64,000 bases of DNA from Abditibacterium sp. (GTDB lineage Bacteria > Armatimonadota > Abditibacteriia > Abditibacteriales > Abditibacteriaceae), in assembly GCA_965199495.1 (NCBI GenBank), contig CBDASK010000003.1, positions 3,840,001 through 3,904,000 of the forward strand, given 5' to 3'. A model generated the notes under the pieces. The model worked only from the letters and a program-made list of their open reading frames with translations. It was not told where the DNA came from and ran no database searches. The translations under genes were made by a program, and so were the position numbers. This document shows positions 115 through 61,669 of this stretch, piece by piece. How positions within the stretch are numbered: position 1 is the stretch's first letter; each line of letters opens with the position of its first letter.

Positions 115-3100
115 ATGCACTTATCCAAACTTCAACTTCACGGATTTAAATCGTTCGCCGACGACACTACGCTCGAATTTGGCGCGGGCATCACCGCCGT
201 CGTCGGGCCGAATGGGTCAGGCAAATCGAATATCGTGGACGGCATTTTGTGGGCGCTGGGCGAACGTTCGCACAAAGCCCTGCGCGGCCACGCCGCCACC
301 GATGTAATTTTTAATGGCGCCGCCTCGCGTAAACCGACCGGTTTGGCCGAAGTTTCGTTGTTCTTCGATAACGCGGATGGCGTTTTGTCGATTGGTTTGA
401 AGGAAGTTCAAGTCACTCGGCGCATTTTCCGCGATGGCGATAACGAATATCGGCTGGGCGGCTCGAAGTGCCGGTTGCGCGATGTAACCGATTTATTTCT
501 CGATACCGGCGTTGGGCCGGACGCCGGTTGCATTATCTCGCAGGGCGAAATCGACGCGATTTTAAGCGCCCGCGCCGAAGATCGGCGCGGTTTAATCGAA
601 GGCGCGGCGGGCATCCAGAAATATCATTCGCGCCGCACGGAAACGCGGCGGCGATTAGACAAAGTTTCCATAGATTTGACGCGCATCGGCGATATTACGT
701 CCGAATTGGAAAAGCAGGTCGGGCCATTGGCGCAGCAAGCCGAAATCGCGCGCGAATACGATCATTTGGTCGCGCGTTTGAAATCGTTGCAACTCGGCGT
801 TTTGGGCCGCGATTATGGTGCGCGCAAAGCGAAATTGGATGCCAGTAAATCGGCGCACACCGAAACCATCGTATTGGTGGACGAAGCGCGTTTGGAAATC
901 GAAAATTTTGAGCGCTTGGAAACTTTGACTTCGCGGCGATTACGCGAATTGGAAGCGCAAGTCGAAACGTTGTCGGGGCAATTAACAGAAAGCGTTTCGC
1001 AATTGAAATCGACCGAAGGCCAAATCGCCGTCGCGCGCGAGCGCCGGCGCGCATTGAGCGAGCAGGGCGAATATCAGGCGCGCGAAATCGGGCATTTGCG
1101 CGCGCGCGTGACGGCGACGCGCGAACAGATTACCACGACGCAAACCGCGATTAAAAACGCGGGCCAAGAGAACTCCGGCCTCAACGTGGCTGCTGCTCAG
1201 GCCGAAAGCAAATTGGGCGAAGCCAACGCGCGTTTATCGGAAGCCGCACGCGAATTGCAAATCGTGCAAAACGGCGTAATCGAAACGCTGCGCGCCGGAC
1301 AGAAACGCCGCGAAGCGATTGCGACCGCGCGCGCCGAAGCTACAGGTTTGGAAAACCGTCTGCGCGAATTGGAACAATTGGGCAAAGGCGGCGGCGAAGA
1401 GATCGAATCTTTGCGCGAAACTCACAATGTCGCGGCGAAAACTTTGGGCGAGCTGCGCGCCCAAATCGCCGACGAAAGCGCGCAAACGGCGGCGCGCGAG
1501 GCGTTGAACGCGGCGCGTGCGGCGGCGAAAAACGCCGCCGAAACTCTGCGCGATGCGCGCGAAAGTCGCGCGAAAATGGCGTCGCGCGCGGCGGCGTTGC
1601 GCGAGTTGGAAGAAAACCTGGAAGGTTTCGCCGGAGGCACGCGCGCGGTTTTAGCCGCCGTCCAAAAAGGCGTTTTGCCCGACGAATATACGCCGGTTGC
1701 CGACGCGATTCGGGCGCCGCAAGAGTTGGAACTCGCCATCGAAATCGCGCTGGGCGCAGGCGTGAATAACTTGATTTGCCCCGACAACGGCGCCGCCAAA
1801 ACCGCGATTGAATTTCTCAAACGCCGCAGCGCCGGACGCGCGACTTTTCTGCCGCTCGATTCATTGCGCAATTCCGGTTTGGGCAACCGCACGCTCGATG
1901 TTTTGAACGACAACGCGGTGCGCGGTTTGGCGTCGGAATTGGTCGAATGCGACGATTATTTTGGCAAAGCGGTGGATTATTTGTTGGGCCGTATTGTCAT
2001 CGTCGAAACGCTGGAAGACGCCACGCGATTGGCGCGGCGCTGCGACAACGGCGCGCGTTTGGTGACTTTGGAAGGCGAACTGGTTTTGGCGGGTGGCGCG
2101 ATAACCGGCGGCGCGGGCAAAGGGCGTGGAAGCGGATTATTGAAGCGCAAACGCGAATTGGACGAATTTGAGGCGCAACTGGCCGATTTGCAGTCGCGCA
2201 TTGATACAGCCACGTCCGACGTGGCTGCATCGAACGAAGCGATTGCCGCGCGCGAAAACGAGTTGCGAATCGCGGGCGAAAATCACAACGAATTGCGGCG
2301 TCAGGGCGCGCGCCAAGAACGCGAAGTCGAAGGTTTGGAGCGCGAAATTCGCAAAATGGGCGGGCAACGCGAAGCCATCGAAAGCCAGATGCGCGCGGCG
2401 CGCGCGCAACTCGAAACCAAATTGGCGGCGCGCGACGTTGAAATCGGCGAGGCGGATTTGGATGACGCGAAATCGAAAGAACTCGAAAGTGCCGTCGAAG
2501 GCGCGCGCGCGGTTGTCGGCACGCGGCAATCCGAAAAAGACGCCATTGCTGCCGAAGTTTCGGATGTGCGCGCGCAGTTTGGTGCGGCGCAGGAACGTTT
2601 GAACGCGATGCGGCGCGAAGTTGGCGAACTCGAACGCGGAATCAAAGAAGCCGAATCGCAAATCAAAGCGAAACAGAGCCAGTTCGACCGCGCCGAAATC
2701 GAAGACGCCGAAATCGTGCGCGCCGAAATCGAAATGGTGGCGAAATTGGAAGAATTGACGCAACGCCGCGCCGATTTGGAATTCGCCACGCGCAAAGCGC
2801 GCGAAGAGCGCGGCGCGGCATTGGAAAAGTTGGAAGAAGTCGGCGCCGGACTAAAATTAGCGCGCCAAAAATTGCACGGCGCCGAAGACGAACTACACAA
2901 AATCGAAGTGCGCATCGCCTCGACAGAAGCCGAAATCGCCGACATGGAACGCCGCTTTCGCGATGAATTTACGCTCGTTCCGGCGTCGGTCGTCGAATGT
3001 CTGGAACACGGCGCGCCCCTTCGCGCGTTCGTGCCGGTTGTTGAGGAAATTGAAGTCGAAGAACACGAATCTGACGGAGAAGAAATCGTCGAAGTTGTAA

Positions 3101-3918: not shown

Positions 3919-3921
3919 AAA

Positions 3922-4034: not shown

Positions 4035-5471
4035 TTACTTCGGCAAAAACTTCAACGCCTTCTGCGCTAAATCCGACGCCAATAATTCCTGATAATACGC
4101 GTTGCCCGCTTTATGAACGATTTCTGAGAGCGTCGGGTAGGGAAACATGGCTTCGCCGAATTCGCTGATTAACGCGCCTTCGCGCACGGGAATAATCAGC
4201 GAACCAATCAATTCGCCCGCGTGCGCGCCGATGATATGCGCGCCGACGATGCGGCCACTGCCCGTCGTAATGATGCGCGCGAAACCGCTGGTTTCGCCCT
4301 CAATAATCGCGCGATCTAATTCGCTAAATGGGATATGCCAGGCGCGCGCGCTTTCGCCCCATTCCCGTTTCGCTTGCGCCAAAGTCTGCCCCAGATGCGC
4401 GACTTCGGGATCGGTAAATGTGACCCACGACAAACCGCGACTGTCCAACTTTTGCGCGAGCGGCGCGGGCAAAACCGCGTTGGCTCCAGCGATTTTGCCC
4501 TGATTTTCGGCGACGTGCGTGAAATACGGCCCGCCCGTCGCATCGCCGCACGCCCACACGTTGTTGGCGGAAGTGCGCAAATGCGCATCAACGCCGATGC
4601 CTTTTTTGTCGGCTTTAACGCCAATTTTTTCTAAGCCCAGATTCTCGAAAACCGGAATTTTGCCAATCGAAACCACGATTTCGCCCGCGCTCACGCTTTG
4701 GCCTTTTTCGTCGGGCGTATCGAACCAAACTTTCTTGCGATCATCACTTTCTTCGGCGCGCGTGGCTGTTGCGTTGAGATGAATCGTGATGCCTTCGGCG
4801 CGCAATAATTTCAGCATCAGCGCCGAAACTTCCGGTTCTTCTTTTTCCAAAATGCGTTCGCCGCGCTGTAAAACCGTGACGCGCGCGCCGAAACGCGAAA
4901 ACGCCTGCGCCATTTCAATCGAAACTGGCCCGCCGCCGATGAAAATCAGCGATTTCGGCAAATTCGGTTTGTCGAATAATCCGTCGGGCGCAATAAATCC
5001 GACTTCTTCCAATCCGTCAATTTCGGCCACGCGCGGCGTCGAACCTGTCGCCAAAACGAACTTTTTCGCGGTGAATTTTTGAACGCCGTTTTTGCTTTCG
5101 ATTTCGAGCGTATTGGAATCCAAAAAGCGCGCGCGTCCGCTCAACGTTTGCACGCCCGATTTTTTGAGTGCCTCGCGTTCGGTGGCCTTAATTTCGTCGC
5201 GCACATCGGCCAATCTTAATTTAACTGCCGACCAAATCAGACGCGGTTTTTCGAGATGAACACCAAATTCGGCGGCACCTTTGACGGTGTAAAACACACG
5301 CGCGCTTTTCAATAAAGTTTTCGATGGCACGCAGCCACGCCACAGACACTCGCCGCCGACTTTATCGGCTTCGATGAGAGTGGCGCGCGCGCCCAGCGAA
5401 GCAGCCACGGCGGACGACACGAGGCCAGCAGTTCCGCCGCCAATTACGGCGACATCGGTATCAAATTGCAT
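4035..5471 (-). CDS. Pyridine nucleotide-disulfide oxidoreductase (dihydrolipoamide dehydrogenase/MerA-like family)
   Basis: GxGxxG FAD motif, GGECLWRGCVPSK redox disulfide, NAD-binding GGGP, C-terminal dimerisation domain with YPTLSE. Confidence 0.9.
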   Translation of the reverse strand: MQFDTDVAVIGGGTAGLVSSAVAASLGARATLIEADKVGGECLWRGCVPSKTLLKSARVFYTVKGAAEFGVHLEKPRLIWSAVKLRLADVRDEIKATEREALKKSGVQTLSGRARFLDSNTLEIESKNGVQKFTAKKFVLATGSTPRVAEIDGLEEVGFIAPDGLFDKPNLPKSLIFIGGGPVSIEMAQAFSRFGARVTVLQRGERILEKEEPEVSALMLKLLRAEGITIHLNATATRAEESDDRKKVWFDTPDEKGQSVSAGEIVVSIGKIPVFENLGLEKIGVKADKKGIGVDAHLRTSANNVWACGDATGGPYFTHVAENQGKIAGANAVLPAPLAQKLDSRGLSWVTFTDPEVAHLGQTLAQAKREWGESARAWHIPFSELDRAIIEGETSGFARIITTGSGRIVGAHIIGAHAGELIGSLIIPVREGALISEFGEAMFPYPTLSEIVHKAGNAYYQELLASDLAQKALKFLPK

Positions 5472-5493: not shown

Positions 5494-5611
5494 GCCACAA
5501 AGAACACAAATGAAATTGAATCAACGGAGACCGGTCTAAAATTCTAAAAAATCTTTGGAGAATTATCTTCGTTAATTCAATCTCATTTGCCTTCTTCGTG
5601 TTCTTTGTGGC
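5494..5611. repeat. Inverted-repeat element family B (CCACA..G.ACACA.A arms) copy 1
   Basis: gccacaaagaacac ... gtgttctttgtggc; related to 17337-17486 and 26835-26965. Confidence 0.7.
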
Positions 5612-6756
5612 TAAAAATTTTGTCCGAACGCGCTCGCATAACCCGTCATTTCGAGATAGCCAACGCCGCTCAAGGCGCGCCCATTTTTTGTGCCGCGCGC
5701 TGTGACGCTGCCTTCCCAATACGCCAAATTCGCGCCCGTGCGCGAGGGCCGCAATTCTTGATTGGAAACGCTCGGCGTCACGATTAAATTCATCTTTTCG
5801 CGCGGCAACGCAATGCGCCATTTCGCCGGGTAAGTCGCGCCCGTAGCGGGCGAATTCCAACGCGAAAGCGGCGTCAATTGAAATTCGGACAATTTCAAAT
5901 GGCGCGCTACGCCATTTTTCTCGATCAAAGTGCCCGACGAATACGGCTCGGTTTTGCCGTTTTTAAGTCGCAACCGGTAAACCATCAATTCGCGGCCATC
6001 GTTAAATTGCAAAGCGAACCAATCCCAGCCGACCTGACTTTTATCCATCTGATTCGAGCCGTATTCGTGATCGAACCAACTTTGCCCCGTCACGCTCAAT
6101 CTTTCGTTGCCAACGACTAAAGTCCCTGACGTTACGAGCCGCGTATAAGAATAATAATGCGAAGCGCGCCCGCGTCCCGCCGATTTTTGCGAAACGCCGT
6201 TTTCTCCTTGAATTACCGGTGGCTTAAGCGCGCTTTGATGGAGATTGAGCGCGAAACTCTGGCCGTTTGTCGCCGTCGCGTCGCTGAGGCCGTGCGCACG
6301 AATCGTTTGATTTTCGCCGCTCTTGCCGTCGAATTTCAAAACCCAATCGCCGCACCAAATACGCGGAGATTTGCTATTGAAATCGGCGCCGTTCAAACCT
6401 AAATTGGCGCGCCCGATGCGGTCGGTGAAATAAAATTTGCGCCCGTTTTCGTCGGTCAGTGCGAAGTGCGCGAACATCAAATCGCGCGCGGCCCACTTCG
6501 ATTGGCGATGGATTTCGGGCGCCAACGCGGTGCGAAACCACGTCAATTGATAACCGAATTTGCGGCCATCTTTGGTTTTTAAATGGCCGGTATAATACCA
6601 CCATTCGGTCGCATAAGCCGGATGCGAATTGTGATCGCGCGGAAACGCAAACGTGTAGGGCGGCACAGCCAATTTGAACTGCGCGGCGGCGTGGCTGCTT
6701 GTTGGCCCGCATAATGGCATCAGCAAAAGACAAAGAAAAACCCGAAACGCTCGCAT
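5611..6756 (-). CDS. Secreted AttH/CrtC-like lipocalin-domain protein
   Basis: FPRDH..HP.Y.TEWWYYTG, W.DHE, GWDWF and YWEG..GYLEMTGY motifs; start moved to MRAFRVFLCLL, which gives a signal peptide. Confidence 0.88.
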   Translation of the reverse strand: MRAFRVFLCLLLMPLCGPTSSHAAAQFKLAVPPYTFAFPRDHNSHPAYATEWWYYTGHLKTKDGRKFGYQLTWFRTALAPEIHRQSKWAARDLMFAHFALTDENGRKFYFTDRIGRANLGLNGADFNSKSPRIWCGDWVLKFDGKSGENQTIRAHGLSDATATNGQSFALNLHQSALKPPVIQGENGVSQKSAGRGRASHYYSYTRLVTSGTLVVGNERLSVTGQSWFDHEYGSNQMDKSQVGWDWFALQFNDGRELMVYRLRLKNGKTEPYSSGTLIEKNGVARHLKLSEFQLTPLSRWNSPATGATYPAKWRIALPREKMNLIVTPSVSNQELRPSRTGANLAYWEGSVTARGTKNGRALSGVGYLEMTGYASAFGQNF

Positions 6757-7567: not shown

Positions 7568-10168
7568 TCATTCGCGTTGTAGCGCCGACGCCAGATTGCG
7601 CCGCGCCGCCGCGCGCGCCGGAAAAACGCCTGCGCCCAACGCCGCCCCCAATGCGAGGGCGAAGGCTTGCACGAAGACCATCGGCTCGACCGAAGGAAAA
7701 ATCGTCCAGCCGAAAAATTGGCGGTTGATGACGAAAATCATTTCGCCCGCCAGCAACAATCCGGCGATGCTGCCCAGAATCCACGACACGCCGCCCAACA
7801 GCGCGAATTCCCACAACGCCATCGCGCGGATTTGTTTCTGCGAAGCGCCCATCGCGCGCAACGCCGCCAGTTCGGTCGTGCGTTCGAGCATCATCGAAAC
7901 CAAAGTGTCGAACACGCCAATCGCAGCCACGACGACAGCGATGAGTTGCAGCGCGTAAGTCACGGCGAAAGTTTGGTCGAAGGTATCGAAAACCTGACGG
8001 CGAATTTCGCGGTTGGGCAACAGCGCGAGCGCGTATTTAGCGCCGAACTTTTCGTTGATTTTACGCTTGATTTCTTCGCCACTCCCGCTTTTGAGATAAA
8101 GCGCGAGTCCATCAATTTGGTCGTCATTCCACAATTTTCGGTAGGTCGAAAGCGGCAGATAAAACACCGAATTGGGATTATAATCATAGAAAACACCGCT
8201 AATCGGAAACGATTTTTCGCCGAGTGGCGTCGGCACTTTTAAGACGCCGCCCGCTTTGAGTTTCAGCTCGTTGGCCAATCGCTCCGAAACCAAAATCGCG
8301 TTGCCCGCCAGATAATCGCGTAACGCCGTGGCTGCTCCGTCGCGCGTCGAGACAAAACGCAAAACGCGTTGTCCGCTTTGAAATGACGGCAAATCGTTGG
8401 CGAAAACCGTTACCGGTTGGCCGTCAATCTCGACCTGCGCCTGACGCACTTTGTCCACGGTTGTTACGCCCGGCAAACTCGCGGCGAAAGCGGTGACTTC
8501 GGCGGGCAAACCCGGCCCGCGTTCGCCCGAAAAACCGCCCGAAGTCGCGATGAAAATATCGGCGCTAATGGTGCCGTTGATCCAATCGGCGACGGTATTG
8601 CGAAACGAACCGACCATCACGTTCATGCCAATTGTTAAGGCCAGCGAAACCAGAAGCGCCGCGATGACCAGACTGGAACGGTTGAGCGCGCGCCGCAAAT
8701 TATCGGCGGCCAAAGCGCCCGCGATGCCACCAAAACGTTCGGCCAATGGGCGCAAAACGCGCGCGAACCAATTGAGTAAAAGCGGCACCATCAAAGCCAC
8801 GCCGCCCAAAGTCGCGCCCGCCGCGACAAATCCGAGCAAAGGCGAGCGGCCCGAAACCGACGGCAAACACAAAACGCCCGCCGCGATTAAACAAACAACG
8901 CCAGCGATGAACAAACGCGGCGCCCAATTTTCCAGCAACGTGTGTAGCGACGAACCCGACAACGCCGCGCGCGGTGTCGTCGAAGCGGCTTCCGAAGCGG
9001 CAGGAATCGCCGCCAGAACGCTGATAATTGTTCCGGCGCACAACGACGCGGGTAGCAGCCACGCCGGGATAAACAGTTCGCGCGCTTTGACCGCCAGATA
9101 CAACTGCGAGACGGTTGTGGCGACCGCGCCCAGCGTCCATTTGGCCAAAATCACGCCGATTCCGAAGCCGACGAGCGAACCGAAAAACCCGATTATCGCT
9201 GCCTCGCCCAGAAACAAACGCATGATTTGCCCGCGTTGCGCGCCGACCGCGCGCAAAATGCCCGCTTCGGCGCGCCTTCGCACGACGGCAGAGGCGAGCG
9301 CGTTATAAATCAAAAACGCGCCGACAAACGCGGCGATGCTGGACAATGCCGTGAGATTCAGTTGAAACGCGCCCAACATCGCGCCGATTTGCGCGCCCCG
9401 TTGCGCGGGCCGCGCGATGGTCGCGTCGGGCGGCAAAAGCGGAGTTAATTCGGATTTGATTTTATCAATCGCTTCGTCGTCAACGATTAAATCAATTTGA
9501 TCGATGTGCCCCAATTCGCCCAGCGCTTCCTGCGCGGCGGCGATGTCGAGCAGGGCATAGTCGCCACCAAACGCGCGGCCCGATGCTTCATCGGTCAAAA
9601 TCGTGGCGACTTTAAACGTCTCGGTGCGCGGCCCAATATTCAATTCGAGCGGCGAACCAATTTTCAACTTCGCCTTGTTCGCCAATTCGCTCGAAACCGC
9701 GATGGCTTTTGGATCCAGTAAAAATCGAATCGCGCCCGAACTATCGCGTCCGGCGACAGGCGCGTTTTGGCCGCGCGTTTCGCGCATCGAATTATCGAGC
9801 GAACTGTCGCGGAATTCGAGTTGCGAAAAGAAATCAACGCCGCTTACCAAAAGCGATGTTTTGAGTTGCGGCGCGTAAAGCGTGCGCGAAATTAGCGGCG
9901 TGCTGGCTTTAATACGTGGATCGCCGCGCTCCATAATTTCGCCTAAAAGTTCGTCGGGCAAACCACTCGAACCGCCGCGAATTTGCAGGTTGGCGCGACC
10001 AGCCACGGCGTCGAGCGAAGCTGAAAACGCGCCCAAAACCGACGCGTTGGCGATCTGAATCGCTACCCAAACCGCGATGCCCAGCGCCACGCCCAAACCC
10101 GCCAAAACAAACGCGCCGCGATGGCGGAGCCAATAGCGCAACGACAAATAGCGCAATCCAATAAGCAT
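7568..10168 (-). CDS. FtsX/MacB-type ABC transporter permease (AttF/G-like double-domain)
   Basis: Two MacB-periplasmic plus FtsX repeats, RRRAEAGILRAVGA and ERTTELAALRAMGAS motifs, C-terminal VINRQFFGW. Confidence 0.9.
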   Translation of the reverse strand: MLIGLRYLSLRYWLRHRGAFVLAGLGVALGIAVWVAIQIANASVLGAFSASLDAVAGRANLQIRGGSSGLPDELLGEIMERGDPRIKASTPLISRTLYAPQLKTSLLVSGVDFFSQLEFRDSSLDNSMRETRGQNAPVAGRDSSGAIRFLLDPKAIAVSSELANKAKLKIGSPLELNIGPRTETFKVATILTDEASGRAFGGDYALLDIAAAQEALGELGHIDQIDLIVDDEAIDKIKSELTPLLPPDATIARPAQRGAQIGAMLGAFQLNLTALSSIAAFVGAFLIYNALASAVVRRRAEAGILRAVGAQRGQIMRLFLGEAAIIGFFGSLVGFGIGVILAKWTLGAVATTVSQLYLAVKARELFIPAWLLPASLCAGTIISVLAAIPAASEAASTTPRAALSGSSLHTLLENWAPRLFIAGVVCLIAAGVLCLPSVSGRSPLLGFVAAGATLGGVALMVPLLLNWFARVLRPLAERFGGIAGALAADNLRRALNRSSLVIAALLVSLALTIGMNVMVGSFRNTVADWINGTISADIFIATSGGFSGERGPGLPAEVTAFAASLPGVTTVDKVRQAQVEIDGQPVTVFANDLPSFQSGQRVLRFVSTRDGAATALRDYLAGNAILVSERLANELKLKAGGVLKVPTPLGEKSFPISGVFYDYNPNSVFYLPLSTYRKLWNDDQIDGLALYLKSGSGEEIKRKINEKFGAKYALALLPNREIRRQVFDTFDQTFAVTYALQLIAVVVAAIGVFDTLVSMMLERTTELAALRAMGASQKQIRAMALWEFALLGGVSWILGSIAGLLLAGEMIFVINRQFFGWTIFPSVEPMVFVQAFALALGAALGAGVFPARAAARRNLASALQRE

Positions 10169-10284: not shown

Positions 10285-10743
10285 TCAAAACGAATCCCGC
10301 CGTTTGTCGGAGAACTCGTGCGCTAAGCCCAACGTAATTTTCGCCCACGCCGGAACAGCAGGCACGCCGTCGCCGTGGCTGCTATGAAGTGACAGGTTTT
10401 CGATAATTCGCAACTGCGCGCGGCCCACTGCGGTTTGCGCGCATTCGAGCCAACGCGCGCGCAGACTTTCCAGCGCGATTTGGTTCGTCAGTTCATCCAA
10501 TCGTGACTGACGAGCGCTTTTGGGAAATGGCAAATCTTCGCTCAACTCGAACGCCAGGCGCGCGCGTTCGTTGGCAATGCTTGCGGCGCGGCGCGCGACT
10601 TCGCGCGTTAATTTGTCGCGCAAATTGGCGTTGACCAGAGCATCCACGCTCAAAGTAAAATTCCACAAACGCGGACGTAAATGCGCCAACAGTAAAACAT
10701 CGGCGCGGTGCAGAGAATCGAATTCGATGTCGTCGAAAATCAT
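10285..10743 (-). CDS. Hypothetical protein
   Basis: 152-aa ORF co-oriented with neighbours, native-like codon usage, no recognised motif. Confidence 0.6.
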   Translation of the reverse strand: MIFDDIEFDSLHRADVLLLAHLRPRLWNFTLSVDALVNANLRDKLTREVARRAASIANERARLAFELSEDLPFPKSARQSRLDELTNQIALESLRARWLECAQTAVGRAQLRIIENLSLHSSHGDGVPAVPAWAKITLGLAHEFSDKRRDSF

Positions 10744-19660: not shown

Positions 19661-19832
19661 AATTGATGGACGCGATGCAGCCACGTCCGCCGTGGCTGCA
19701 TGGTGTGCCCGACTTTAAGTTAGCTCTCACTGGCGATAAATGTGATGGCACATTGCTCGCCTATTCTTGCCCGATTGTCCAGAAGTTGCTTTGGGACGCA
19801 ACTTGTCGCGCTCCGAGAAGTTGGAATCTGTC

Positions 19833-48000: not shown

Positions 48001-49170
48001 TTACTTCAATGCCAACTCATACGCTTTCAATACGCCGCGCGCCTGCGCCTCGACGGTGAAACGCTGCGTCCAATTTTTGCCGCGTTGAATCAGTTCGTCG
48101 CGCAAATCGGCGTCGCGCATCATCAGTTCCAAACCATCGCGAATAGATTGCGTTTCGTAGGGATCAATTTTGACGGCGGCATCGCCCGCGACTTCGGGCA
48201 TCGAAGCGCGATTGCTCGTCAAAACCGGCGCGCCCGCCGCCATCGCTTCGATGATGGGCAAACCGAAACCCTCATACAAACTTGGATAAGCGAAAACCTG
48301 CGCGCCCGCGTAAAGCGCGGGCAGTTCCTCGTCCAAGACGTAGCCAGTGAAACGAATATCGGGATCGGTTTTTTGTAAGTCGTCGCCCCAGCCGGGTTTG
48401 CCGGTAATCACCAACTGTTGCAGCCACGTCGGGTTGGCGCGCTTGATTTGGCGAAACGCTTTGATCAAACGCGCCACGTTTTTGCGCGGCTGCAAAACGC
48501 CGACGCTCAAAACGTAGGGCGCGTCGGTCAAATCGTATTTGCGACGCAGTTCGGCGATTTGCGCGGGCGCAACCGGCGCACGAAAGCGGTCGTCGAGGCC
48601 AATCGTCGTCAGCGAAATTTTGTTGGGATTGACGCGCAGCGCCCGCGCGATTTCGTTTTTGCTGGAACGGCTTTCGGTTAGAATGCGCCGCGCGCGCCGG
48701 ACGGAAAGCGGCATCGCCAGATTCATAATCGCGCGATCTTTGGCGGGGAATGTTCGGGGTAAAGCGCGCCACACGACATCGTGAATCGTGGTCACGAACG
48801 GGCAGGGCAACGGCCCCGGCGCCAGATAATTAACGTGAACCAGCGCGGGCCGATTTTCCCATGCCCAGCGTGGCAAAGTCCACGCGCTCCACACGCGGCC
48901 ATTGCGCGCGGGCAAAACGTGCGTCGCAAAGCGCGATGGACTTGACGCCGTGGCTGCTACGATCAAACCGGCTTCGTCGGGCGCGTCGAGCAAAATATCG
49001 AATTCGTAGGGCGACGGCACGCGCGCCAGACCGCGCAGAAGTCCCAGCGTGTAAGTGCGGTCTCCGGTTTTGGGCTGGAGAATCGTGCGCGCGTCAATGG
49101 CGATGCGAGGAAGTGTTGGCAAGGCGTGTAGAGTATGGATGTTCGCGCGAATTTGTGGCGAGACCAACAA
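48001..49170 (-). CDS. Glycosyltransferase family 4 (mannosyltransferase-like)
   Basis: IAIDAR, TIHD, PRKN, PSLYEGFGLP.IEAMA; true start may lie slightly downstream. Confidence 0.9.
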   Translation of the reverse strand: MLVSPQIRANIHTLHALPTLPRIAIDARTILQPKTGDRTYTLGLLRGLARVPSPYEFDILLDAPDEAGLIVAATASSPSRFATHVLPARNGRVWSAWTLPRWAWENRPALVHVNYLAPGPLPCPFVTTIHDVVWRALPRTFPAKDRAIMNLAMPLSVRRARRILTESRSSKNEIARALRVNPNKISLTTIGLDDRFRAPVAPAQIAELRRKYDLTDAPYVLSVGVLQPRKNVARLIKAFRQIKRANPTWLQQLVITGKPGWGDDLQKTDPDIRFTGYVLDEELPALYAGAQVFAYPSLYEGFGLPIIEAMAAGAPVLTSNRASMPEVAGDAAVKIDPYETQSIRDGLELMMRDADLRDELIQRGKNWTQRFTVEAQARGVLKAYELALK

Positions 49171-50906: not shown

Positions 50907-52118
50907 TTAGAACGCGTTGTCCAAGACAGCCACGCCGGGCAGGTCTACGCCTTCGAGAAATTCGAGACTGGCGCCGCCGCCCGTCGAGACGTGCGACATT
51001 TGATCCGAAAGTCCCATCTGTTTGGCTGCCGCCGCGCTGTCTCCGCCGCCGATGACCGTGAGCGCTCCCTTGACCGTCGCGCTCGCCAGCGCCGTGGCTA
51101 TAGCGCGCGTGCCGTTGGAAAACGGCGTGACTTCAAAGCGACCCATCGGGCCGTTCCACAACACGGTTTGCGCGTTTTCGATGACTTGCGAATAATCGGC
51201 GACGGTTTTGGGGCCGATGTCCATGCCCATCATGTCGTCGGGGATTTGTCCGGCGGGCACGACTTCGGTGCGCGCGTCTTCGGCATCGCGGTCGGCGACC
51301 ACGAAATCCTGCGGCAAACGGAAATCATAGCCTTTTTCACTCGCCAATTGCATCAGTTCGGCAGCAATCGGCGCGTCTTCCACCTTGAAATACGACGTGC
51401 CGACCGGACGATTGCGCGCGGCCTCGAACGCATAAGCCATCGCGCCGCCGACCAAAATCGTGTCCACTTGGCCCAATAAATTGCGAATCACACCGATTTT
51501 GTCGCTGACTTTGACGCCGCCTAAAATCGCCACGAACGGGCGTTTGGGATTGTCGAGCAACTGGCTCAAAAACTCCAGTTCGCGCGCCATTAATAATCCG
51601 GCCACGCAGGGTTTGCCCTGTGCTTTCATCACTTCGGCGACGCCGTGCGTCGAGGCGTGCGCGCGGTGCGCGGCGCCAAAGGCGTCGTTGACGTAAACGT
51701 CGCCGAACTGCGCCAATTGGCGCGCGAGTTCGGGATCGTTGGTCTCTTCGCCGGGATGGAAACGCGTGTTTTCCAGCAACAAAACGCCGCCGGGCGCGAC
51801 GTTTTTCACCATCGCCGTCGCTTCGAGGCCGGTGCTGTCGGTGGCATATTGCACGTCGCGTTCGAGCAGTTCTTGCAAACGCTGCGAAACGCCAATCAGA
51901 CGCATTTCGGGCACGACTTGGCCTTTGGGACGGCCATAGTGCGCCATCAAAACGACGCCCGCTCCGGCGTCGAAAAGGTATTGCAGCGTCGGCACGGTTT
52001 CGCGGATGCGCGCGTCGTCAGTGATGTGGCCGTTTTCGTCAACGGGCACGTTGTAGTCAACGCGCATCAAGACGGTCTTGCCGCCCAGTTCGATGTCGCG
52101 AATGGTTTTTTTGTTCAT
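50907..52118 (-). CDS. pgk: Phosphoglycerate kinase
   Basis: [49 protein letters not shown]. Confidence 0.98.
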
Positions 52119-52224: not shown

Positions 52225-52797
52225 ATGTTTTTGATCGTTGGTCTGGGCAATCCCGGTTTGCAATACGCGCGCACGCGCCACAACGCCGGTTGGTTCGTCA
52301 TTGACGAACTGGCGCGGCGTCACGAGGTTTCCCTCGTCAAAAAGAACGCCGATTATAAATTGGGACTTGGCTTCATGGGCGAACACAAAATTGGTTTAGT
52401 CAAGCCGCAAACTTACATGAACGATTCGGGGCGCGCGGTCGCGTCTCTCCAGCATTTTTATCGTCTGGAAATCGCGCAAATTTTAGTTTTGACCGACGAT
52501 TTAAATTTGCCCGTCGGCAAACTGCGTCTGCGCGGCAACGGCTCGGACGGCGGGCATAACGGCCTCAAATCCATCGCGCAAAGTTTGAACAGTCGCGATT
52601 ATGCGCGGTTGCGCATTGGCGTCGGCGAGCCACCGCGCGAGGAACGCGAACGCGCGGGCACCGCCAATTTCGTGTTGCGCCCGTTCAGCTCCGACGAATG
52701 GCCCCTTGTTGATGAAAACACCGCCCGCGCCGCCGACGCCGTGGCTGCATGGATCGAAGGCGGCGTCGAATACGCGATGAGCCGCTTTAACGGCTAA
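52225..52797 (+). CDS. pth: Peptidyl-tRNA hydrolase
   Basis: LIVGLGNPG..Y..TRHN.G, KPQTYMN.SG, GGHNGLKSI, RLRIGVG. Confidence 0.96.
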   Translation: MFLIVGLGNPGLQYARTRHNAGWFVIDELARRHEVSLVKKNADYKLGLGFMGEHKIGLVKPQTYMNDSGRAVASLQHFYRLEIAQILVLTDDLNLPVGKLRLRGNGSDGGHNGLKSIAQSLNSRDYARLRIGVGEPPREERERAGTANFVLRPFSSDEWPLVDENTARAADAVAAWIEGGVEYAMSRFNG

Positions 52798-54663: not shown

Positions 54664-56130
54664 TTAAACCAAGCGCGCGCCAACTTGAACTTCAAAAGTG
54701 CGGCTCCACGGCAAATTGACCCGCAAATCGCGGACATTCGCGCCAAACTGTTCGCGCGCCAAATCGTGCGCGAATGTTTCCATGCTCGCGCGCGCCAACA
54801 CCTCGATTTGCTGGCCCTGACCGTTCATGCTGAGCGGCGAAAAGCCGCGTTGGCGCGCTTCGTGTTCCAATTCGGCGCGCAGGTTCGCCTGATAATACCA
54901 ATCGTCCAACAAACGCTCGAAAACGAATTGACGATTTAATTCGGCTTCGTTGCTGCGCACCAGAGCCGCGCACTGCGCCAGCACCGTTCCGGTTGTGTTG
55001 CCCGCCGTGTTCCAGCCGCCAAACGCGGCCAAACGGCCCAGAATGTCGCCGCTTGCGCGCAACTCGTCCATCAACAAATTATCGGCGCCATTGGGAAACG
55101 CGACATCGCACAGCGCGACGCGCGCGCCACTTTCGACGGCGCTTTTCAGGCGCGCGACCCAAGTTTTCAAGGCGCCAGTGCGCTCCAACTTTTCGGCGAC
55201 GCTTTCGTCTTTTTGCGAACCGGCAATCGGCGCGTTGACCCACAATTGAATGTCGGCCTCGTCGTCCTGCGTGATGCGCCCGCTCATCGCCGCGATATGA
55301 GAATGCAGCGCGTCTTCGTAGGGCACATCCTCGAAAACCGCGATGTTGCGCTTATTGGTCTGGCTCGACCAGTGAATCGAAAAGCCGACATCGCCGTTCC
55401 AGTGGCGCGCGAGCAACGTGAGCGCGGCCTCATCGGCGCCGGGATGCAACGCGAATTTCTTCGCGACGCCCTTGGCAGCCACGGCGGCGGTGATCTCGTC
55501 TTGTTCGGCGCGGTGCAGACCGAATTCGGTGCAATCTTCTTGGGTAATCAGCAGATAATCGAAAATTCCATCGGCCAGCCAATCCACCATTTGCAGGTTG
55601 ACCGCGTGATTGCGCGCGCGCGCGCCGCAATACTGCTCGATAATCGCGTCGGGAATTTGCGCGCGCACTTCGTTGCGCTCGGCCTCTTTGGCGGGCGAGG
55701 GAAACCGTTTGGCTTCGCCCATCAAACGCGCCCAGCGCATCACGTTGTAATAGTGCGGCACGGCGGCGTCCGAGTCCATCGTAATCGCCAGCCGCATCAA
55801 AATGTTGAACGCATAAACCGGCGTTTGCGGGCGCGACTTGCGCCACTTTTTCAGCGTTTGCAAACGATTCAACGCGGTTTCCAAATCGGTCGCGGTTTTA
55901 CGCGAGGCGACCAAACCGCCGTAGGCGAGCATATCAACCGAAACGATGAGCGCCTCGACGGGGGGCAACGCATCGAGCCACGCGCGCAAGGCGTCGCAGT
56001 CGCCGCGCTGATTGAATTGGCCGAGCAAGTTTGCGGGCGGCGCGAGGAGTTGCGCGTCGCCGATGGCGGCGATTTGCGCGGGAAATTGCAGGTTACAGGG
56101 ACGGTCGTCGAGCGGCAGAAGGGCGATCAT
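54664..56130 (-). CDS. DUF4127-family protein
   Basis: LPLDDRPCN, DML.YGGLVASR, PGADE, GWNTAGNT.G, DDW.YQ, PW.RTFEV. Confidence 0.85.
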   Translation of the reverse strand: MIALLPLDDRPCNLQFPAQIAAIGDAQLLAPPANLLGQFNQRGDCDALRAWLDALPPVEALIVSVDMLAYGGLVASRKTATDLETALNRLQTLKKWRKSRPQTPVYAFNILMRLAITMDSDAAVPHYYNVMRWARLMGEAKRFPSPAKEAERNEVRAQIPDAIIEQYCGARARNHAVNLQMVDWLADGIFDYLLITQEDCTEFGLHRAEQDEITAAVAAKGVAKKFALHPGADEAALTLLARHWNGDVGFSIHWSSQTNKRNIAVFEDVPYEDALHSHIAAMSGRITQDDEADIQLWVNAPIAGSQKDESVAEKLERTGALKTWVARLKSAVESGARVALCDVAFPNGADNLLMDELRASGDILGRLAAFGGWNTAGNTTGTVLAQCAALVRSNEAELNRQFVFERLLDDWYYQANLRAELEHEARQRGFSPLSMNGQGQQIEVLARASMETFAHDLAREQFGANVRDLRVNLPWSRTFEVQVGARLV

Positions 56131-56154: not shown

Positions 56155-56805
56155 TTACGATTGCGGTTCGCTCGTCGGCGGCGTGGCTGGTGTGGTCGCG
56201 TCGCTTGGAGCGTTGAGTTGTGAATTGAGTTCGTCCGAATGATTTTCGGTCGCAATTTTGTCTTTGTCTTTGGGACGCGGGATTTTCAGATGAATTTCGT
56301 TGAGCAGAGTGCGCGCGGCATCGTGTTTGGGATTGAGCGTCAGTTCGCGCCGCAAAGCCTGCGCGGCTTCGTCGCTACGGTCTTGCTTCATGTAACCGAC
56401 CGCTAAATTATAGTTGGCATCCACCCAGTTTGGCCGACCTTCGACCAAGGTTTCCAGCGTTTCAACCGAATGCTTGATGTCGCCCAATGCGTCGTAAGTC
56501 GCCGCCAAGTTTAATAGCGCGATGGTGTTATGCGGCTCCAGCGCCAGCACGTAGCGCAGATGGCCCAGCGCTTCTTCGGGCCGTTTGACCAGATAAAGCG
56601 CGGCGCCCAAGTTCAAACGGCCTTCCAAACGCGTTGGCTCGATGGCGTAGGCTTTCTCGAAACATTTGATGGCTTTTTCGGGTTGCCGCTTTTCCAGATA
56701 GCGCGTGCCCTGCGACCAAAAATGCTGGGCGCGCTCGAATTTATCGGCGCCCGCATTCTCGCCGGTTTCGGCGTCACTTTCTGACTTGGAACTAAACGGC
56801 CACAT
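56155..56805 (-). CDS. TPR-repeat protein
   Basis: Repeated NLG/NLA..Y...A.....L...P units. Confidence 0.88.
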   Translation of the reverse strand: MWPFSSKSESDAETGENAGADKFERAQHFWSQGTRYLEKRQPEKAIKCFEKAYAIEPTRLEGRLNLGAALYLVKRPEEALGHLRYVLALEPHNTIALLNLAATYDALGDIKHSVETLETLVEGRPNWVDANYNLAVGYMKQDRSDEAAQALRRELTLNPKHDAARTLLNEIHLKIPRPKDKDKIATENHSDELNSQLNAPSDATTPATPPTSEPQS

Positions 56806-56932: not shown

Positions 56933-57006
56933 TAGCGGAAGAGGGATTCGAACCCCCGACACACGGATTATGATTCCGTTGCTCTAACCGACTGAGCTAT
57001 TCCGCC
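56933..57006 (-). tRNA. tRNA-Met (CAT), elongator-like
   Basis: Reverse complement ggcggaatagctcagtcggttagagcaacggaatCATaatccgtgtgtcgggggttcgaatccctcttccgcta; lacks the GGG/CCC initiator anticodon stem; Ile2 identity not formally excluded. Confidence 0.9.
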
Positions 57007-57465: not shown

Positions 57466-58464
57466 ATGCAAAATTCTCTCAATTCTCCCGTTCACGTCGC
57501 CCTGACCGGCGCTGCCGGACAAATCGGTTACGCTCTGGCCTTTCGCATCGCGAGCGGCCAAATGTTTGGCCCGCAGACGCCGGTTTGTCTGCATCTCATC
57601 GAAATCGAACCGGCGTTGCCCGCACTTAAAGGCGTCGAAATGGAACTGCTCGATTGCGCGTTTCCGCTTCTGCAAAATATCGTTTGCACCGCCGATCTCA
57701 AACGCGGCTTTAACAACGTCAACTGGGCTTTGCTCATCGGTTCCGTTCCGCGCAAAGACGGCATGGAGCGCAGCGATTTGCTCAGCATCAACGGCAAAAT
57801 TTTCACCGGCCAAGGGCAGGCGATCCAAGACAACGCCAATTCCGACGCCCGCGTTTTGGTCGTTGGCAATCCGTGCAACACCAACTGTCTCATCGCGATG
57901 AACAACGCGCCCGAAGTGCCGCGTGACCGTTGGTTTGCCATGACGCGTTTGGACGAAAATCGCGCCAAACAGCAGTTGTCTCTCAAAGCCGAAGTCGGCG
58001 TGGCTGGGGTTGACCGCATGACGATTTGGGGCAATCACTCTTCGACGCAGTTTCCCGATTTTACCAACGCGCGCATCGGCGGCCAAAGTGCGACCGACGT
58101 GATTAACGACGAAAACTGGCTCAAATCAGAGTTCATTCCCATTGTGCAAAGTCGCGGCGGCGCCGTTATCAAGGCGCGCGGCGCGAGTTCGGCGGGTTCG
58201 GCGGCCAACGCCATTGTGGACAGCGTCGTCTCACTGACAACAGCCACGCCGGGCGACGACTGGCATTCGGTCGCGCTGTGCAGCGACGGCAGTTATGGCG
58301 TGCCCGAAGGTTTGATTTGCTCGTTTCCCACGCGCTGTGATGGAAATAATATTGAAATTGTGCCCGATGTGCCGCTCAACGATTTCGCGACGGATAAATT
58401 GGCGGCGTCGGTTGTCGAGTTGCAGGAAGAACAACGTCTGGTGGCCGATTTGTTGCCTGAGTGA
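57466..58464 (+). CDS. mdh: Malate dehydrogenase (MDH type 2)
   Basis: [51 protein letters not shown]. Confidence 0.96.
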
Positions 58465-58948: not shown

Positions 58949-61669
58949 CTAAAACGAGCGACCGATGGCCAGCGAGACAATCGAGTTTTTCAGCGTTGGG
59001 CCGGGTTTGGTGAAGTCCGGTTGATCGGTGGAGGTGCGCAGATAGCGCGCGGTCAACGAAAATTTGCTGCTCAGATCGTAAGTCGCCGCCGCACGCACCA
59101 CGCGTTGGCGTTGGAAGCCCTGCGGGCCAGGCACATCCTGATCTTGCGAGTTCAGATCGGCGTATTGCAGTCCACCGAACAAGGTCAGTTTGGGTAATAC
59201 GCGGATGTAACCATCGAAACGCAAGTTTTCCGCGCCACCGTAAAGCGAAGGGGCAACCGGAGCAATCGCGTATCCCAACGGCGCGCCACGGTAGTAGTAG
59301 GAGTAATCCTGAGCGAAGGCGGCGCCTTGGCCGCCGCGATAAAGATAGGAAAGCGCGGCGAAGCGGGCATATTCAAAGTCAACGCCCAGACGCGCCGGAT
59401 CGGTTGGGTCGTTGTAGTGTCCGCCCACGATGGAGCCAGCGCGGTTGGCAATTGCGTTTTTCTGGTTGAGGCCCAGATCATCCAAAATAACCTCGCCATA
59501 AACCCGCGCGCCGCGCGCCACCGATACTTCGCCATAAGCGCTGACGACGGCATTCGAGTTGGATGTCACCCGATCTTTGCGCACGTTATAAAGTGGATAT
59601 GGGCTAAAGGCCGCCAGAAAATCGCTCGAACTAAAGGCTCTGCCGGGCAAAATCACCGTGGTATTGAAGCCAAATTTGGCGTCTTTGCCCACGCGCACAT
59701 TGAAATCTTGACCGTAAAAAGAGCGGTCTCCCGTCAATCCTTTGCCCAGATTGGCATATACGCCGCGCAGTTCGTAGGAGCCGCGCTTGAACGAGGTCGT
59801 GAGCGAGTCCAAGCCACCCGACGCATCCGAAATGACGCCCGTGCCGTAATGGCCCGGCCCCCACCATAATTCCTGGCGTCCCACGCGAAGCGTTAGGCCG
59901 CGCAACAACGAATTGGCGTCGTAATCCACGTAGGCTTTGCGGAACGAGTTGCTGGCGATTTGGCCGAACGGTTCGCCGTTGCGCACGGCGGTGCCCGCGT
60001 CAACCGACGCGTAAAACGAAAGTTTGGGCGTGATGGTGCCAAACACGTTGGTGCGCGTGTCCAGACCGCTTTTGCGGCGCGTCTGCCCCCAGCGCCCGTC
60101 GTTGGGATCGCGCGAGTTGTCTCCGGTATCGCCGCCGACCGCCGTCAGGCGCGTGTAGCCCGAAACGCCCAGTTGAAAACCGTCTTTGTTAAAGGCATCG
60201 AGCGTTTCGGCGGGCACGTTCAAATCCTGCAAATCGCGGCGATATTGTTTCACCAAAATCGAGAGCGCTGCGCTGTTGCGGCCCTTTTCTCCGTCGAAAT
60301 TGGAGAGCGCTTCGGCGATAAACCCAGCGACCTGCGCGCGCGAAAAGTTGATGTCTTCGGAAACGCTGTGGCGACGCGCGCCGTCGTCTTGAAAGACGCG
60401 CGCGGGCTGCGATTTGATCAGGCCGCGCGCCGCCAGACTGGCCAGCAATTCGTAGGTCGCCTCGGCCTTGGGCACGACGATGTTGGAAGCGCCGCTCTCG
60501 AACTTGACGCGTACGCTGGGAATCGGCGCATTGGGCAAACCAATCGCGGGCAAAACAACCGGCGCCTGCATGCCGCTCGATGGCGCGATTAAGCCCGCCG
60601 CATCGCCCACGCGCAGCGAACCCTGCGCGGCATCGCTATAAACAACTGTGGCCAGCGAAGTATCGGAGGCGGCGCTTTCGATGCGCACCAAACCGATGAC
60701 AGCGCCGTCGCGCAAAATCGGCACGTTCTGGCCGACTTTTGCGCCCTGTGCGGTGCCGACATCCAAAGTCACGTTTTGCGCGTCAACCGCGAGGATCGAA
60801 GCGGTGCGCCCGGAGATTTCGCCCGAAGCCATCGCTGCCTGTTTGACCGACGGCCCCGTGGGCACCCCACTGTCCGGCACGGTCGTGTCGGGCACGATCA
60901 CGGTCGGTTGCGTGGGCGTGACGACCACTTCGGGTTCGGGCGGCGCGAGCAAATCGGCGGGGATAGTTTCGATGGCGTCGAAGCGCGCGTTCTCGCCGAC
61001 GACGGGCACGAAACCTTCATCCATGTTTTGCACGCGCGCGCGCGCCGAATCGCCATTGACTTCGACGACGATCATGCGCGCCTTGGCGTCGCCAGTGACG
61101 GGCATCACGTAAACCGCGCCCAACTTCATGCCCCGATTGGTGCCCGCTCCCAGCATGATGTCCTTTCCGTTCACGCTCGTTACCAAAACCAAAGTCGGAG
61201 GTCTTTCGCTGGTATTGGTCGAATTATCAAGCGTCGGCTGTTCGGGCGGTAGCGGCGTGGCTGGAGTTAAGGGCGTGGTCGGATTCGCCGGAGTTAGGGG
61301 CGTCGCGGGGGCGGCGCCGTCGTTCATGCCGATGAAAGTCGCGGTGTCGCCGACCGTGATGACGAGCGAGCGTCCGGCGCTTTCGACCGACGAAATGCGC
61401 GCCATGGATTGGGCGGCCTGAACTTCGGTGACTTGCAATTGTACGAACTGATTGTCGCGCGCGATTTGATAGATAGCGCCGACTTGCGTGCCCTTGTCAG
61501 CGCCCGTCGAAAGCGTGACCATGTCGCCGCGCACCGCGAGGACATACGCGACATCGGGGGTGGCGGGCGTTGTGGCGTTTTGTGCGAGCGCGGCGGGCGC
61601 GAGGGCAGCCACGCCGGGCGCACCCAGCAAAGCGCACAAAAGGGGCGCGGAAATTTTACGTTTTTTCAT
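58949..61669 (-). CDS. Large outer-membrane protein: three repeated beta domains plus Wzi-like barrel
   Basis: Signal peptide, 3x V.G..V.L..G...G...G repeats with Pro/Thr linkers, GRQELWWGPG (Wzi-like), terminal Phe. Confidence 0.75.
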   Translation of the reverse strand: MKKRKISAPLLCALLGAPGVAALAPAALAQNATTPATPDVAYVLAVRGDMVTLSTGADKGTQVGAIYQIARDNQFVQLQVTEVQAAQSMARISSVESAGRSLVITVGDTATFIGMNDGAAPATPLTPANPTTPLTPATPLPPEQPTLDNSTNTSERPPTLVLVTSVNGKDIMLGAGTNRGMKLGAVYVMPVTGDAKARMIVVEVNGDSARARVQNMDEGFVPVVGENARFDAIETIPADLLAPPEPEVVVTPTQPTVIVPDTTVPDSGVPTGPSVKQAAMASGEISGRTASILAVDAQNVTLDVGTAQGAKVGQNVPILRDGAVIGLVRIESAASDTSLATVVYSDAAQGSLRVGDAAGLIAPSSGMQAPVVLPAIGLPNAPIPSVRVKFESGASNIVVPKAEATYELLASLAARGLIKSQPARVFQDDGARRHSVSEDINFSRAQVAGFIAEALSNFDGEKGRNSAALSILVKQYRRDLQDLNVPAETLDAFNKDGFQLGVSGYTRLTAVGGDTGDNSRDPNDGRWGQTRRKSGLDTRTNVFGTITPKLSFYASVDAGTAVRNGEPFGQIASNSFRKAYVDYDANSLLRGLTLRVGRQELWWGPGHYGTGVISDASGGLDSLTTSFKRGSYELRGVYANLGKGLTGDRSFYGQDFNVRVGKDAKFGFNTTVILPGRAFSSSDFLAAFSPYPLYNVRKDRVTSNSNAVVSAYGEVSVARGARVYGEVILDDLGLNQKNAIANRAGSIVGGHYNDPTDPARLGVDFEYARFAALSYLYRGGQGAAFAQDYSYYYRGAPLGYAIAPVAPSLYGGAENLRFDGYIRVLPKLTLFGGLQYADLNSQDQDVPGPQGFQRQRVVRAAATYDLSSKFSLTARYLRTSTDQPDFTKPGPTLKNSIVSLAIGRSF

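Follow-up and report, generated by a model that had tools for sequence, protein, structure and literature searches.

The octamer CAGCCACG is maintained in genome G000 of the Abditibacteriaceae by a force on the DNA, not on protein or transcript, and each chromosome strand bears its own under-dispersed set of copies, with an exclusion of about 0.8 kb between them. The window (the whole 64-kb stretch of DNA that was analysed) contains 47 exact copies, 23 on the + strand and 24 on the - strand (Table 1). All 46 copies listed in a preliminary description of this DNA are exact matches, and one + strand copy (7924) had been overlooked. The same description had put the copies extending to GCAGCCACG at about 29, and 30 were counted; its estimate from base composition was about 3 copies. 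Dinucleotide shuffles gave a mean of 2.31 (maximum 6, with 0 of 100 reaching 47), and an order-3 Markov model gave 3.1.

Table 1. Copies of CAGCCACG in the window. All are exact matches; gene names were read from the translations, not from tool annotation.
Position	Strand	Location and remarks
1185..1192	-	SMC-like ORF 115-3918
2207..2214	+	ORF 115-3918; inverted pair with 2220
2220..2227	-	inverted pair with 2207
4761..4768	-	ORF 4035-5471
5332..5339	+	ORF 4035-5471; rare close same-strand pair with 5402 (70 bp)
5402..5409	+	ORF 4035-5471
6690..6697	-	near 5' end of ORF 5611-6834
7924..7931	+	ORF 7568-10168; overlooked earlier
8327..8334	-	ORF 7568-10168
9056..9063	+	ORF 7568-10168
10000..10007	+	ORF 7568-10168
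10374..10381	-	ORF 10285-10743
14629..14636	-	catalase-like ORF 14572-16296
17730..17737	-	Obg-like ORF 17487-18776
18836..18843	-	ORF 18821-19660
19180..19187	+	ORF 18821-19660
19678..19685	+	between divergent genes; inverted pair with 19691
19691..19698	-	inverted pair with 19678
20623..20630	+	ORF 19791-20753
22982..22989	-	HslU-like ORF 22899-24317
24579..24586	+	ORF 24464-25468
27780..27787	+	ORF 27149-28666
28567..28574	-	ORF 27149-28666
29275..29282	+	ORF 28904-29539
31080..31087	-	ORF 30396-31130
35359..35366	-	ORF 34945-35403; divergent inverted pair with 35379
35379..35386	+	divergent inverted pair with 35359
37893..37900	+	ORF 36793-37938
39897..39904	-	ORF 39385-40572
40493..40500	+	ORF 39385-40572
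41969..41976	-	ORF 40578-42500
43171..43178	+	ORF 42497-43651
44420..44427	-	ORF 43648-44616
44836..44843	-	ORF 44621-45574
44946..44953	+	ORF 44621-45574
47503..47510	-	ORF 45584-47956
47583..47590	+	ORF 45584-47956
48421..48428	+	ORF 48001-49122
48949..48956	-	ORF 48001-49122
50927..50934	+	phosphoglycerate kinase gene 50907-52118
52740..52747	-	ORF 52225-52797
55476..55483	+	ORF 54664-56130
56182..56189	-	ORF 56155-56805
57999..58006	-	ORF 57466-58464
58241..58248	+	ORF 57466-58464
61256..61263	-	ORF 58949-61669
61606..61613	+	ORF 58949-61669

The enrichment is genome-wide. G000 holds 3,091 copies against 436 expected under an order-4 Markov model, by which the word is also the top 6-, 7-, 8- and 9-mer, and its chromosome carries 3,083 of them (0.65/kb), 2,832 (92%) as single copies within predicted genes. 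The suggestion that the word is read in several frames and selected at the DNA level proved sound: all six frames are used (sense 88, 833 and 316; antisense 68, 304 and 1,229), and the enrichment survives codon shuffling, with 2,836 copies in predicted genes compared to 274 under synonymous permutation within genes (about 10-fold) and 1,258 under dicodon-conditioned resampling, a null into which the word itself already enters. The tripeptides that it encodes (VAA, AVA, AAT, TAT) are among the top 8 enriched. When orthologues from word-negative relatives were compared, only 1 of 100 sites carried the word. The consensus consists of a strict core, AGCCAC, within a graded (A/T)GCAGCCACG(G/C/T)CG. 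Single mismatches of the core are mostly depleted in G000 (15 of 18 variants below 1); this is opposite to the mismatched DUES, which are reported to be over-represented under a different null model (PMC1939737).

The spacing of the copies, examined for pairs up to 10 kb apart, depends on strand. At 45-600 bp, 180 same-strand pairs were observed vs 568 expected, and 535 opposite-strand pairs vs 572, i.e. the two strands are independent; the fitted range of the same-strand exclusion is about 780 bp. None of 40 control 7-mers has such an exclusion (minimum ratio 0.95-1.08). The pattern was replicated in G004 at 160-1,000 bp (same strand 8 vs 23.6 expected, opposite strand 22 vs 22.0) and, with small counts, in G011, and a toy simulation gives the observed spacing under a strand-specific model; an orientation-blind model fails. 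In a Neisseria DUS control, pairs in the same orientation were weakly depleted at short range (0.70 and 0.61 under 320 bp) and not at larger distances, and no USS-bearing control genome was found among the 161 genomes sampled. Across oppositely oriented genes there are 16 pairs on the same chromosome strand vs 45 on opposite strands. The exclusion thus tracks the chromosome strand rather than the transcript, and for this reason an RNA-level signal was rejected and the reader of CAGCCACG must be strand-specific or directional; the strand-specific spacing implies that the word acts in an orientation-dependent way.

One could postulate that the word has no function and simply results from codon usage, mutation bias or a REP-like mobile repeat. 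The inverted-pair hairpins of G004 do resemble REP doublets, and the commonest frames yield Ala-rich peptides. Nevertheless, the excess over protein-preserving shuffles, the predominance of intragenic single copies in all frames, the lack of strand-specific spacing in the controls and the near-absence of the word at orthologous sites largely refute this reading, which we regard as extremely improbable. A window artefact, a codon by-product and a mobile repeat have all been discarded, given the genome-wide excess, the protein-preserving nulls and the orthologues without the word.

Strong leading-strand bias, which according to the preliminary description would mean Chi or KOPS, is absent: 1,489 copies are leading and 1,594 lagging (p = 0.06), with a KOPS-type pattern being polar in the same genome (299 vs 81). 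Classical Chi, KOPS and AIMS were set aside, since polarity is lacking and the enzymes are missing. Density is uniform chromosome-wide, and there is no concentration at the origin or terminus. Foreign-looking DNA has few copies: the word is scarce on the small contigs C1 and C2 (0.08-0.09/kb), in low-GC 10-kb bins (low-GC islands) and in atypical genes (0.43-0.46/kb), and the 8.5 kb of the CRISPR array contain none. Close inverted pairs in G000 lie inside genes in 71 of 88 cases and consequently are not terminators.

Among the 27 family genomes, CAGCCACG is present in 3, which form one clade, and absent in 24. The named isolate falls outside this clade, its phosphoglycerate kinase having just 74% identity. 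In seven other family genomes the words are different, with a length of 8-12 bases or more and a density of about 1/kb; six of the seven are palindromic, and the word changes completely between genera. AGTACT is the core of the palindromes in sister genera, and the palindromic words repel one another below about 640 bp. Graded consensuses of 12-20 bases occur in G004, G014 and G020, and G004 has frequent long inverted-pair hairpins, whose intergenic position was judged by eye from the flanks. Whole-genome counts lie behind the word-negative calls for CAGCCACG and AGTACT only; for other words, the calls come from sampled stretches of about 15-113 kb in each family genome except G025, and of 3-20 kb in genomes beyond the family, and further dialects may be missed.

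These distributions bear on the idea that the word is a housekeeping site, either on exposed single strands (replication-restart priming or loading for gap repair) or as the target of a nucleoid or condensin factor that acts directionally. Uniform density along the chromosome, per-strand tiling and the lack of a transcript effect would suit such a site. However, polarity and an origin or terminus concentration are both absent, and a housekeeping need is hard to reconcile with 24 of 27 genomes that do without the word and with its change between genera; this role is improbable.

The genome sequence is instead consistent with CAGCCACG being an uptake-sequence-like, lineage-specific self tag that is read in single-stranded form during transformation, a proposal whose likelihood we place somewhat short of even. 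In this model, a sequence-specific reader would meet single-stranded DNA, most likely the strand imported in natural transformation (at the ComEC/DprA/RecA stage), or a pilus receptor would fix the entering strand. A strand with one tag per ~1-kb tract would be kept and recombined; a second tag on the same strand would contribute little more, and the reader would not see one on the opposite strand. Biased recombination would then raise the word on each strand separately. The palindromic dialects of the sister genera would be the economical solution, since a single site serves as the mark of both strands.

The com and pil genes that such a model calls for are present. G000 contains intact comEC and comEA, a type IV pilus operon (pilB-pilT-pilC-pilD-pilin) and a dprA match. 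ComEA and DprA are each found in 25 of 27 family genomes and ComEC in 5 of 5 tested, including 2 that are word-negative; whether a genome has the word or not makes no difference to the presence of these genes. The ComP-like pilin anticipated in the preliminary description did not appear: PF16732 matched 0 of 5 genomes in a search that was positive in 2 of 2 Neisseria genomes. The large pilin of the operon is acidic and 615 aa long; its predicted fold (pLDDT 88) has no PDB structure match at E <= 0.001, and an atlas search returned only unnamed Armatimonadota pilin clusters. The search for a reader proceeded candidate by candidate. The earlier uptake-signal reading stands in part. Density, lack of polarity, DNA-level selection, tripeptides, scarcity in foreign-looking DNA, dialects and com genes favour it, but no ComP was found, the competence genes do not discriminate, and same-strand exclusion is unlike the action of an orientation-blind receptor of double-stranded DNA. 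ComP is reported to prefer double-stranded DNA (PMC12061091).

Another hypothesis is a Chi-like signal for chromosome repair, in which a directional nuclease-helicase other than RecBCD/AddAB would resect a broken end as far as the first copy of the word on the strand that it reads; two-ended breaks, such as those from desiccation, would need both orientations on both replichores. A directional reader predicts strand-specific tiling, and within the genus AddB was found in all 10 word-negative genomes but in none of the 3 word-positive ones. The candidate is a 1,421-aa protein with a PD-(D/E)XK nuclease and a Dna2/Nam7-type helicase (C3:4111365-4115630), which is one of two PDDEXK_1 matches in G000, the other having 299 aa and neither being AddA. 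It is found in the 3 word-positive genomes and in G017, which has a non-palindromic unit, whereas all 10 genomes with AddB lack it. A further 21 close homologues, with identities of 64-89%, suggest that it is a stable gene of the clade. However, the gene pattern amounts to about two independent evolutionary events, and no RecC was found in 5 of 5 genomes tested. In G011, where residues 1-679 of the protein (the nuclease) are missing and the reading frame is shifted, 2,676 copies of the word are nevertheless kept with little sign of decay (the core one-off variant numbers 194 vs 162 in G000), although this is tempered by an excess of G000-only over G011-only sites (19 vs 5). Furthermore, G016 carries the gene with no dispersed word evident in 95 kb, the 6 AGTACT genomes lack it, and a full-length homologue occurs in 3 long metagenomic loci, of which 2 are without a word and 1 has an unconvincing one. 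The case for the 1,421-aa protein as reader is thus weakened, and the Chi-like explanation as a whole, though the strongest of the rivals, is unlikely.

The single-strand tag also has to be weighed against a methylation mark on one strand, placed by a type IIG/IIL-like or orphan methyltransferase and used for strand discrimination in mismatch repair, along the lines of the methyl-directed model proposed for HIP1 (PMC4390886). Both strands would then have to carry sites of their own, within about 1 kb. The spacing fits, as does the strict core, with a penultimate A in CAGCCAC like that of MmeI-family sites, and the depleted core mismatches are compatible with conversion to the word. Three methyltransferases are common to G000 and G004, but two are broken genes in G000, with relatives in word-negative G003 or G009. 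The third resembles GATC enzymes, and GATC is depleted in G000 (0.44). In addition, the 12-20-base consensuses exceed the usual length of a methyltransferase site, and in G014 a single N4/N6 match and no C5 enzyme were found. In a search of four Pfam families, no intact methyltransferase was found to track CAGCCACG, and this alternative, also raised in the preliminary description, has little probability.

No published account of CAGCCACG as a bacterial genome word was found among the matches listed, and supplementary k-mer tables could contain it; a search for accounts linking Abditibacterium or Armatimonadota to uptake, motif or competence gave no relevant match, with most subscription papers outside its scope. 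It is conceivable, albeit rather doubtful, that the Abditibacteriaceae possess a third, independently evolved system of sequence-specific self-recognition, with single-stranded reading by an undescribed factor and a word that switches between palindromic and non-palindromic forms. In that case, words of the DUS type and of the HIP1 type would answer the same need in two ways, with about one mark per kb per strand. To our knowledge, two proteobacterial families are the only ones for which sequence-specific uptake is established, and what HIP1 does has not been settled in three decades. The Abditibacteriaceae, a small family, combine one non-palindromic word, several palindromes, an intermediate form made of pairs, and close relatives that have no word, and this diversity provides a natural experiment for identifying the reader by comparing gene content. 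The strand dependence of the spacing is easily computed and restricts the mechanism to a reader of single strands or one with a direction, acting over about 0.8 kb; the same statistic could be applied to DUS, USS, HIP1 and other unexplained words.

Among known systems, KOPS, AIMS and REP are likewise abundant short chromosomal words, and REP-like hairpins occur in G004, but CAGCCACG is non-polar, is not concentrated at the terminus and is mainly a single intragenic word in G000. Chi of RecBCD/AddAB is also a non-palindromic, orientation-dependent 8-mer that marks self DNA; it differs from CAGCCACG, which has no replichore polarity, and in G000 (95% complete) no RecC family match, no AddB with a congeneric query and no AddA/RecB-type nuclease were found. 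The DUS of Neisseriaceae, with eight dialects and the receptor ComP, and the USS of Pasteurellaceae, for which ComN/PpdA is the proposed receptor, share with CAGCCACG a density of about 1/kb, a non-palindromic form, the lack of replichore bias, an intragenic location in preferred frames, enriched tripeptides, scarcity in foreign DNA, lineage dialects and the presence of competence genes. In contrast, the Abditibacteriaceae belong to another phylum, no ComP was found, some dialects are perfect palindromes, mismatches in the core are depleted, and same-strand exclusion is strong and kilobase-scale, whereas it is weak in the Neisseria control. According to a preprint (10.1101/2025.06.16.659825), no families other than Neisseriaceae and Pasteurellaceae are known to have sequence-specific uptake. 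The hairpins of G004 resemble the inverted-pair hairpins that DUS form (PMC3630211). Compared to HIP1 (GCGATCGC) and the alternative HIPs of cyanobacteria, CAGCCACG is not a palindrome, belongs to a clade of three genomes rather than a phylum and has no intact cognate methyltransferase that was found in the four Pfam families searched. Nevertheless, both are hyper-abundant coding octamers under DNA-level selection with a link to transformation, a proposed one for CAGCCACG; HIP1 is reported to increase transformation in a partly homology-dependent manner (10.1101/2024.09.10.611283), and the AGTACT-core palindromes of the sister genera are direct analogues of HIP1.

The non-palindromic octamer CAGCCACG (the word) is present in 47 exact copies in the window, 23 on the + strand and 24 on the - strand, compared with a mean of 2.31 and never more than 6 in shuffled versions, and it leads the window's rankings of 6-, 7- and 8-mers. 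All 46 positions listed in the preliminary description were recovered, plus one extra copy at 7924. The enrichment also extends well beyond the window: the 4.81-Mb genome (G000; three contigs, with the window at C3:3840001-3904000 of the chromosome) contains 3,091 copies. The chromosome carries 3,083 of them (0.65/kb), while the two small contigs have 2 and 6 (0.08-0.09/kb). Comparison of its PGK with named homologues assigns this genome to Abditibacteriaceae. A custom gene caller predicted 3,880 genes, which contain 2,832 of the 3,083 chromosomal copies (0.72/kb inside vs 0.32/kb outside). Synonymous permutation of the genes leaves 274 copies and dicodon-conditioned resampling 1,258, vs 2,836 observed; the excess thus survives both nulls, the codon shuffle having been proposed as a test. 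Within G000 genes, the word encodes 26%-54% of all compatible peptides, and VAA, AVA, AAT and TAT are within the eight most enriched tripeptides.

The strict core of the word is AGCCAC. In G000, 15 of 18 single changes in this core fall below expectation (lowest 0.15), while changes of the octamer's first or last base are over-represented 1.3-3.2-fold. A graded consensus, (A/T)GCAGCCACG(G/C/T)CG, is seen both in 240 intergenic copies and in well-populated frames. Alignment to orthologues from seven relatives without word enrichment, another proposed check, revealed the word at 1 of 100 G000 sites; 10 of the 100 have the same peptide, a figure without a control comparison. G011 and G000 have 27 of 40 sites in common (control 8-mers, 39% identical). 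Between G004 and G000, 29 of 131 are common (control, 26%), indicating that sites turn over. The word is kept by a force at the DNA level.

The spacing of copies is strand-specific. Same-strand pairs at 45-600 bp number 180 in G000, vs 568 expected from a shift null; the ratio climbs from 0.14 at ~70 bp, via ~0.4 (500 bp) and 0.8 (1.1 kb), to 1 at 1.7 kb and beyond, and the fitted range of exclusion is 782 +/- 99 bp. Between strands, pair numbers match expectation (535 vs 572), except that pairs 8-20 bp apart are 4-6-fold in excess. Among 40 control 7-mers of like abundance, none shows similar same-strand avoidance, weak sites are likewise depleted beside strong ones on the same strand, and the pattern recurs in G004 and G011 samples. 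Across oppositely oriented genes (45-700 bp), pairs on the same chromosome strand remain depleted (16 vs 45 on opposite strands); consequently, spacing acts on DNA, and a transcript-level effect is ruled out. The pattern emerges from a toy model in which saturation is strand-specific, whereas an orientation-blind version depletes both pair classes. Saturation operates per strand over about 0.8 kb, and a reader of the word would see one strand or move directionally. In a Neisseria control (618 unpaired DUS; 835 kb in 42 merged loci chosen around inverted pairs), ratios at 45-160, -320, -640 and -1,000 bp were 0.70, 0.61, 1.29 and 1.09 for the same orientation and 2.46, 1.34, 1.07 and 0.94 for the opposite one; the sign is the same at short range, but the effect is far weaker and shorter.

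Word density differs between self and foreign-looking DNA. Atypical genes have 0.43-0.46 copies/kb vs about 0.75, the emptiest chromosome bins are mostly low-GC stretches, and a CRISPR-like array outside the window has no copies in 8.5 kb. There is no replichore polarity: leading and lagging strands carry 1,489 and 1,594 copies (p = 0.06), with replichores defined by what we take to be a KOPS-type pattern (299 vs 81 in G000). No origin or terminus excess was seen on the chromosome, and a chromosome-housekeeping site seems an improbable role. G000 also has two further REP- or MITE-like repeat families (~120-160 copies; containing GTAGAGACACC and GTCATTCTGAG).

CAGCCACG is enriched in 3 of 27 Abditibacteriaceae genomes, G000, G004 (3,503) and G011 (2,676), which form one clade (support 100/100; PGK tree, 25 rows); the other 24 are at reversed-control level. 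In G004 the word is longer, approximately GACACCAGCCACGTCCTACGG, and 56 of 175 sampled copies are in close pairs. Hairpins of ~60 bp there, each made of two extended copies and commonly with A/T-rich flanks, are terminator-like or REP-like (L026-L037), and one 18-bp tandem array of the word is present. Six other genomes (G018, G014, G020, G022, G024 and G042) have 2,813-4,733 copies of AGTACT, vs <=285 in the remaining 21. Palindromes with this core (8-12 bases, about 1/kb, evenly spaced, e.g. L052-L059 and L088-L094) mutually repel below about 640 bp and represent an apparently undescribed HIP1-like system. GTAC, their centre, is strongly avoided on the G000 chromosome (0.11), as is CTAG (0.04). 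In G017, 70 of 109 copies of AAGTACGGTCGA lie in close inverted pairs forming a larger near-palindrome. The start of this word (L095, L177-L182) is one mismatch from the H. influenzae USS core as quoted in PMC2817400, probably a coincidence. Overall, 10 of 27 genomes have such a word; limited samples of the rest showed none, apart from a G001 repeat containing ATTTTTTGTG (L138; 19 times in 14.6 kb), which may be either an array or one more dialect. The word changes fast between lineages.

Positions and samples of the features and lineage words
Feature	Position or sample	Strand	Remark
SAM-I/IV riboswitch (upstream of small hypothetical ORF) and three tRNA genes, listed jointly	window 10789-10893; 30197-30367; 56933-57006	-; +; -	
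Transposase-like ORF	window 13013-14080	-	reading of translation; 0 word copies
Large pilin-like protein cluster	C3:867671-880963		conserved; after pilD
CRISPR-like array	C3:2766484-2775007		131 repeats, 66-bp period
Nuclease-helicase gene	C3:4111365-4115630		adjoins type IB topoisomerase gene
G020 full word TCGAGTACTCGA	160 kb		127 sites
G014 full word GCAAGTACTTGC	140 kb		88 sites
G022 full word GAGTACTC			
G018 full word AAAGTACTTT	6.5-kb sample		

The suggested search for com and pil genes found intact comEC (859 aa) and comEA (315 aa) in G000, and a pilB-pilT-pilC-pilD operon that continues into genes for large pilins. ComEA and DprA each have matches in 25 of 27 genomes, which allows an uptake reading without lending it specific support. 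Operon pilins of G000 and G004 match at 41-59%, vs 85-93% for motor genes; surface proteins often diverge in this way. One 615-aa pilin-like member has a confident structure model and no PDB match. ComP was absent in the genomes searched. Density, lack of polarity, DNA-level selection and the presence of com/pil genes are as expected of the uptake sequence first proposed; the missing ComP speaks against it.

A Chi-like repair role, with a candidate enzyme of another kind than RecBCD or AddAB, is unlikely, though less so than a housekeeping site. No RecC was found in five genomes tested; within the genus, AddB occurs in all 10 word-negative genomes and in no word-positive one. AddAB-like genes were seen in these 10 congeners alone, and other family members appear, where tested, to be without both RecBCD and AddAB. 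The candidate, a 1,421-aa PD-(D/E)XK nuclease and SF1 helicase, is in the three word-positive genomes, G017 and G016; its gene is truncated in G011 (L438), which keeps the word, and G016 showed no dispersed word in 95 kb. Its uncharacterised family has 286 homologues among the matches listed, including Thermomicrobiales. A methyl mark is as doubtful as a housekeeping site: 3 of 16 G004 methylase ORFs compared have close G000 counterparts, two of them interrupted in G000 and with relatives in word-negative genomes, the third presumably GATC-specific by resemblance.

We tentatively favour transformation and recombination as the pathway the word may serve, since, to our knowledge, only uptake-type systems build words of such length, density and lineage specificity. 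A further reason is that HIP1, according to a preprint, acts partly via homology-dependent steps (10.1101/2024.09.10.611283). A literature search of main texts turned up neither these words nor any uptake sequence from Abditibacteriaceae. The word is real and strongly selected, apparently undescribed, and known in kind although different in detail. By analogy, it may work like DUS/USS, but ComP, a defining feature there, is absent from the genomes searched; it may likewise work like HIP1, but it is not a palindrome. From Chi it differs in both polarity and enzymes.
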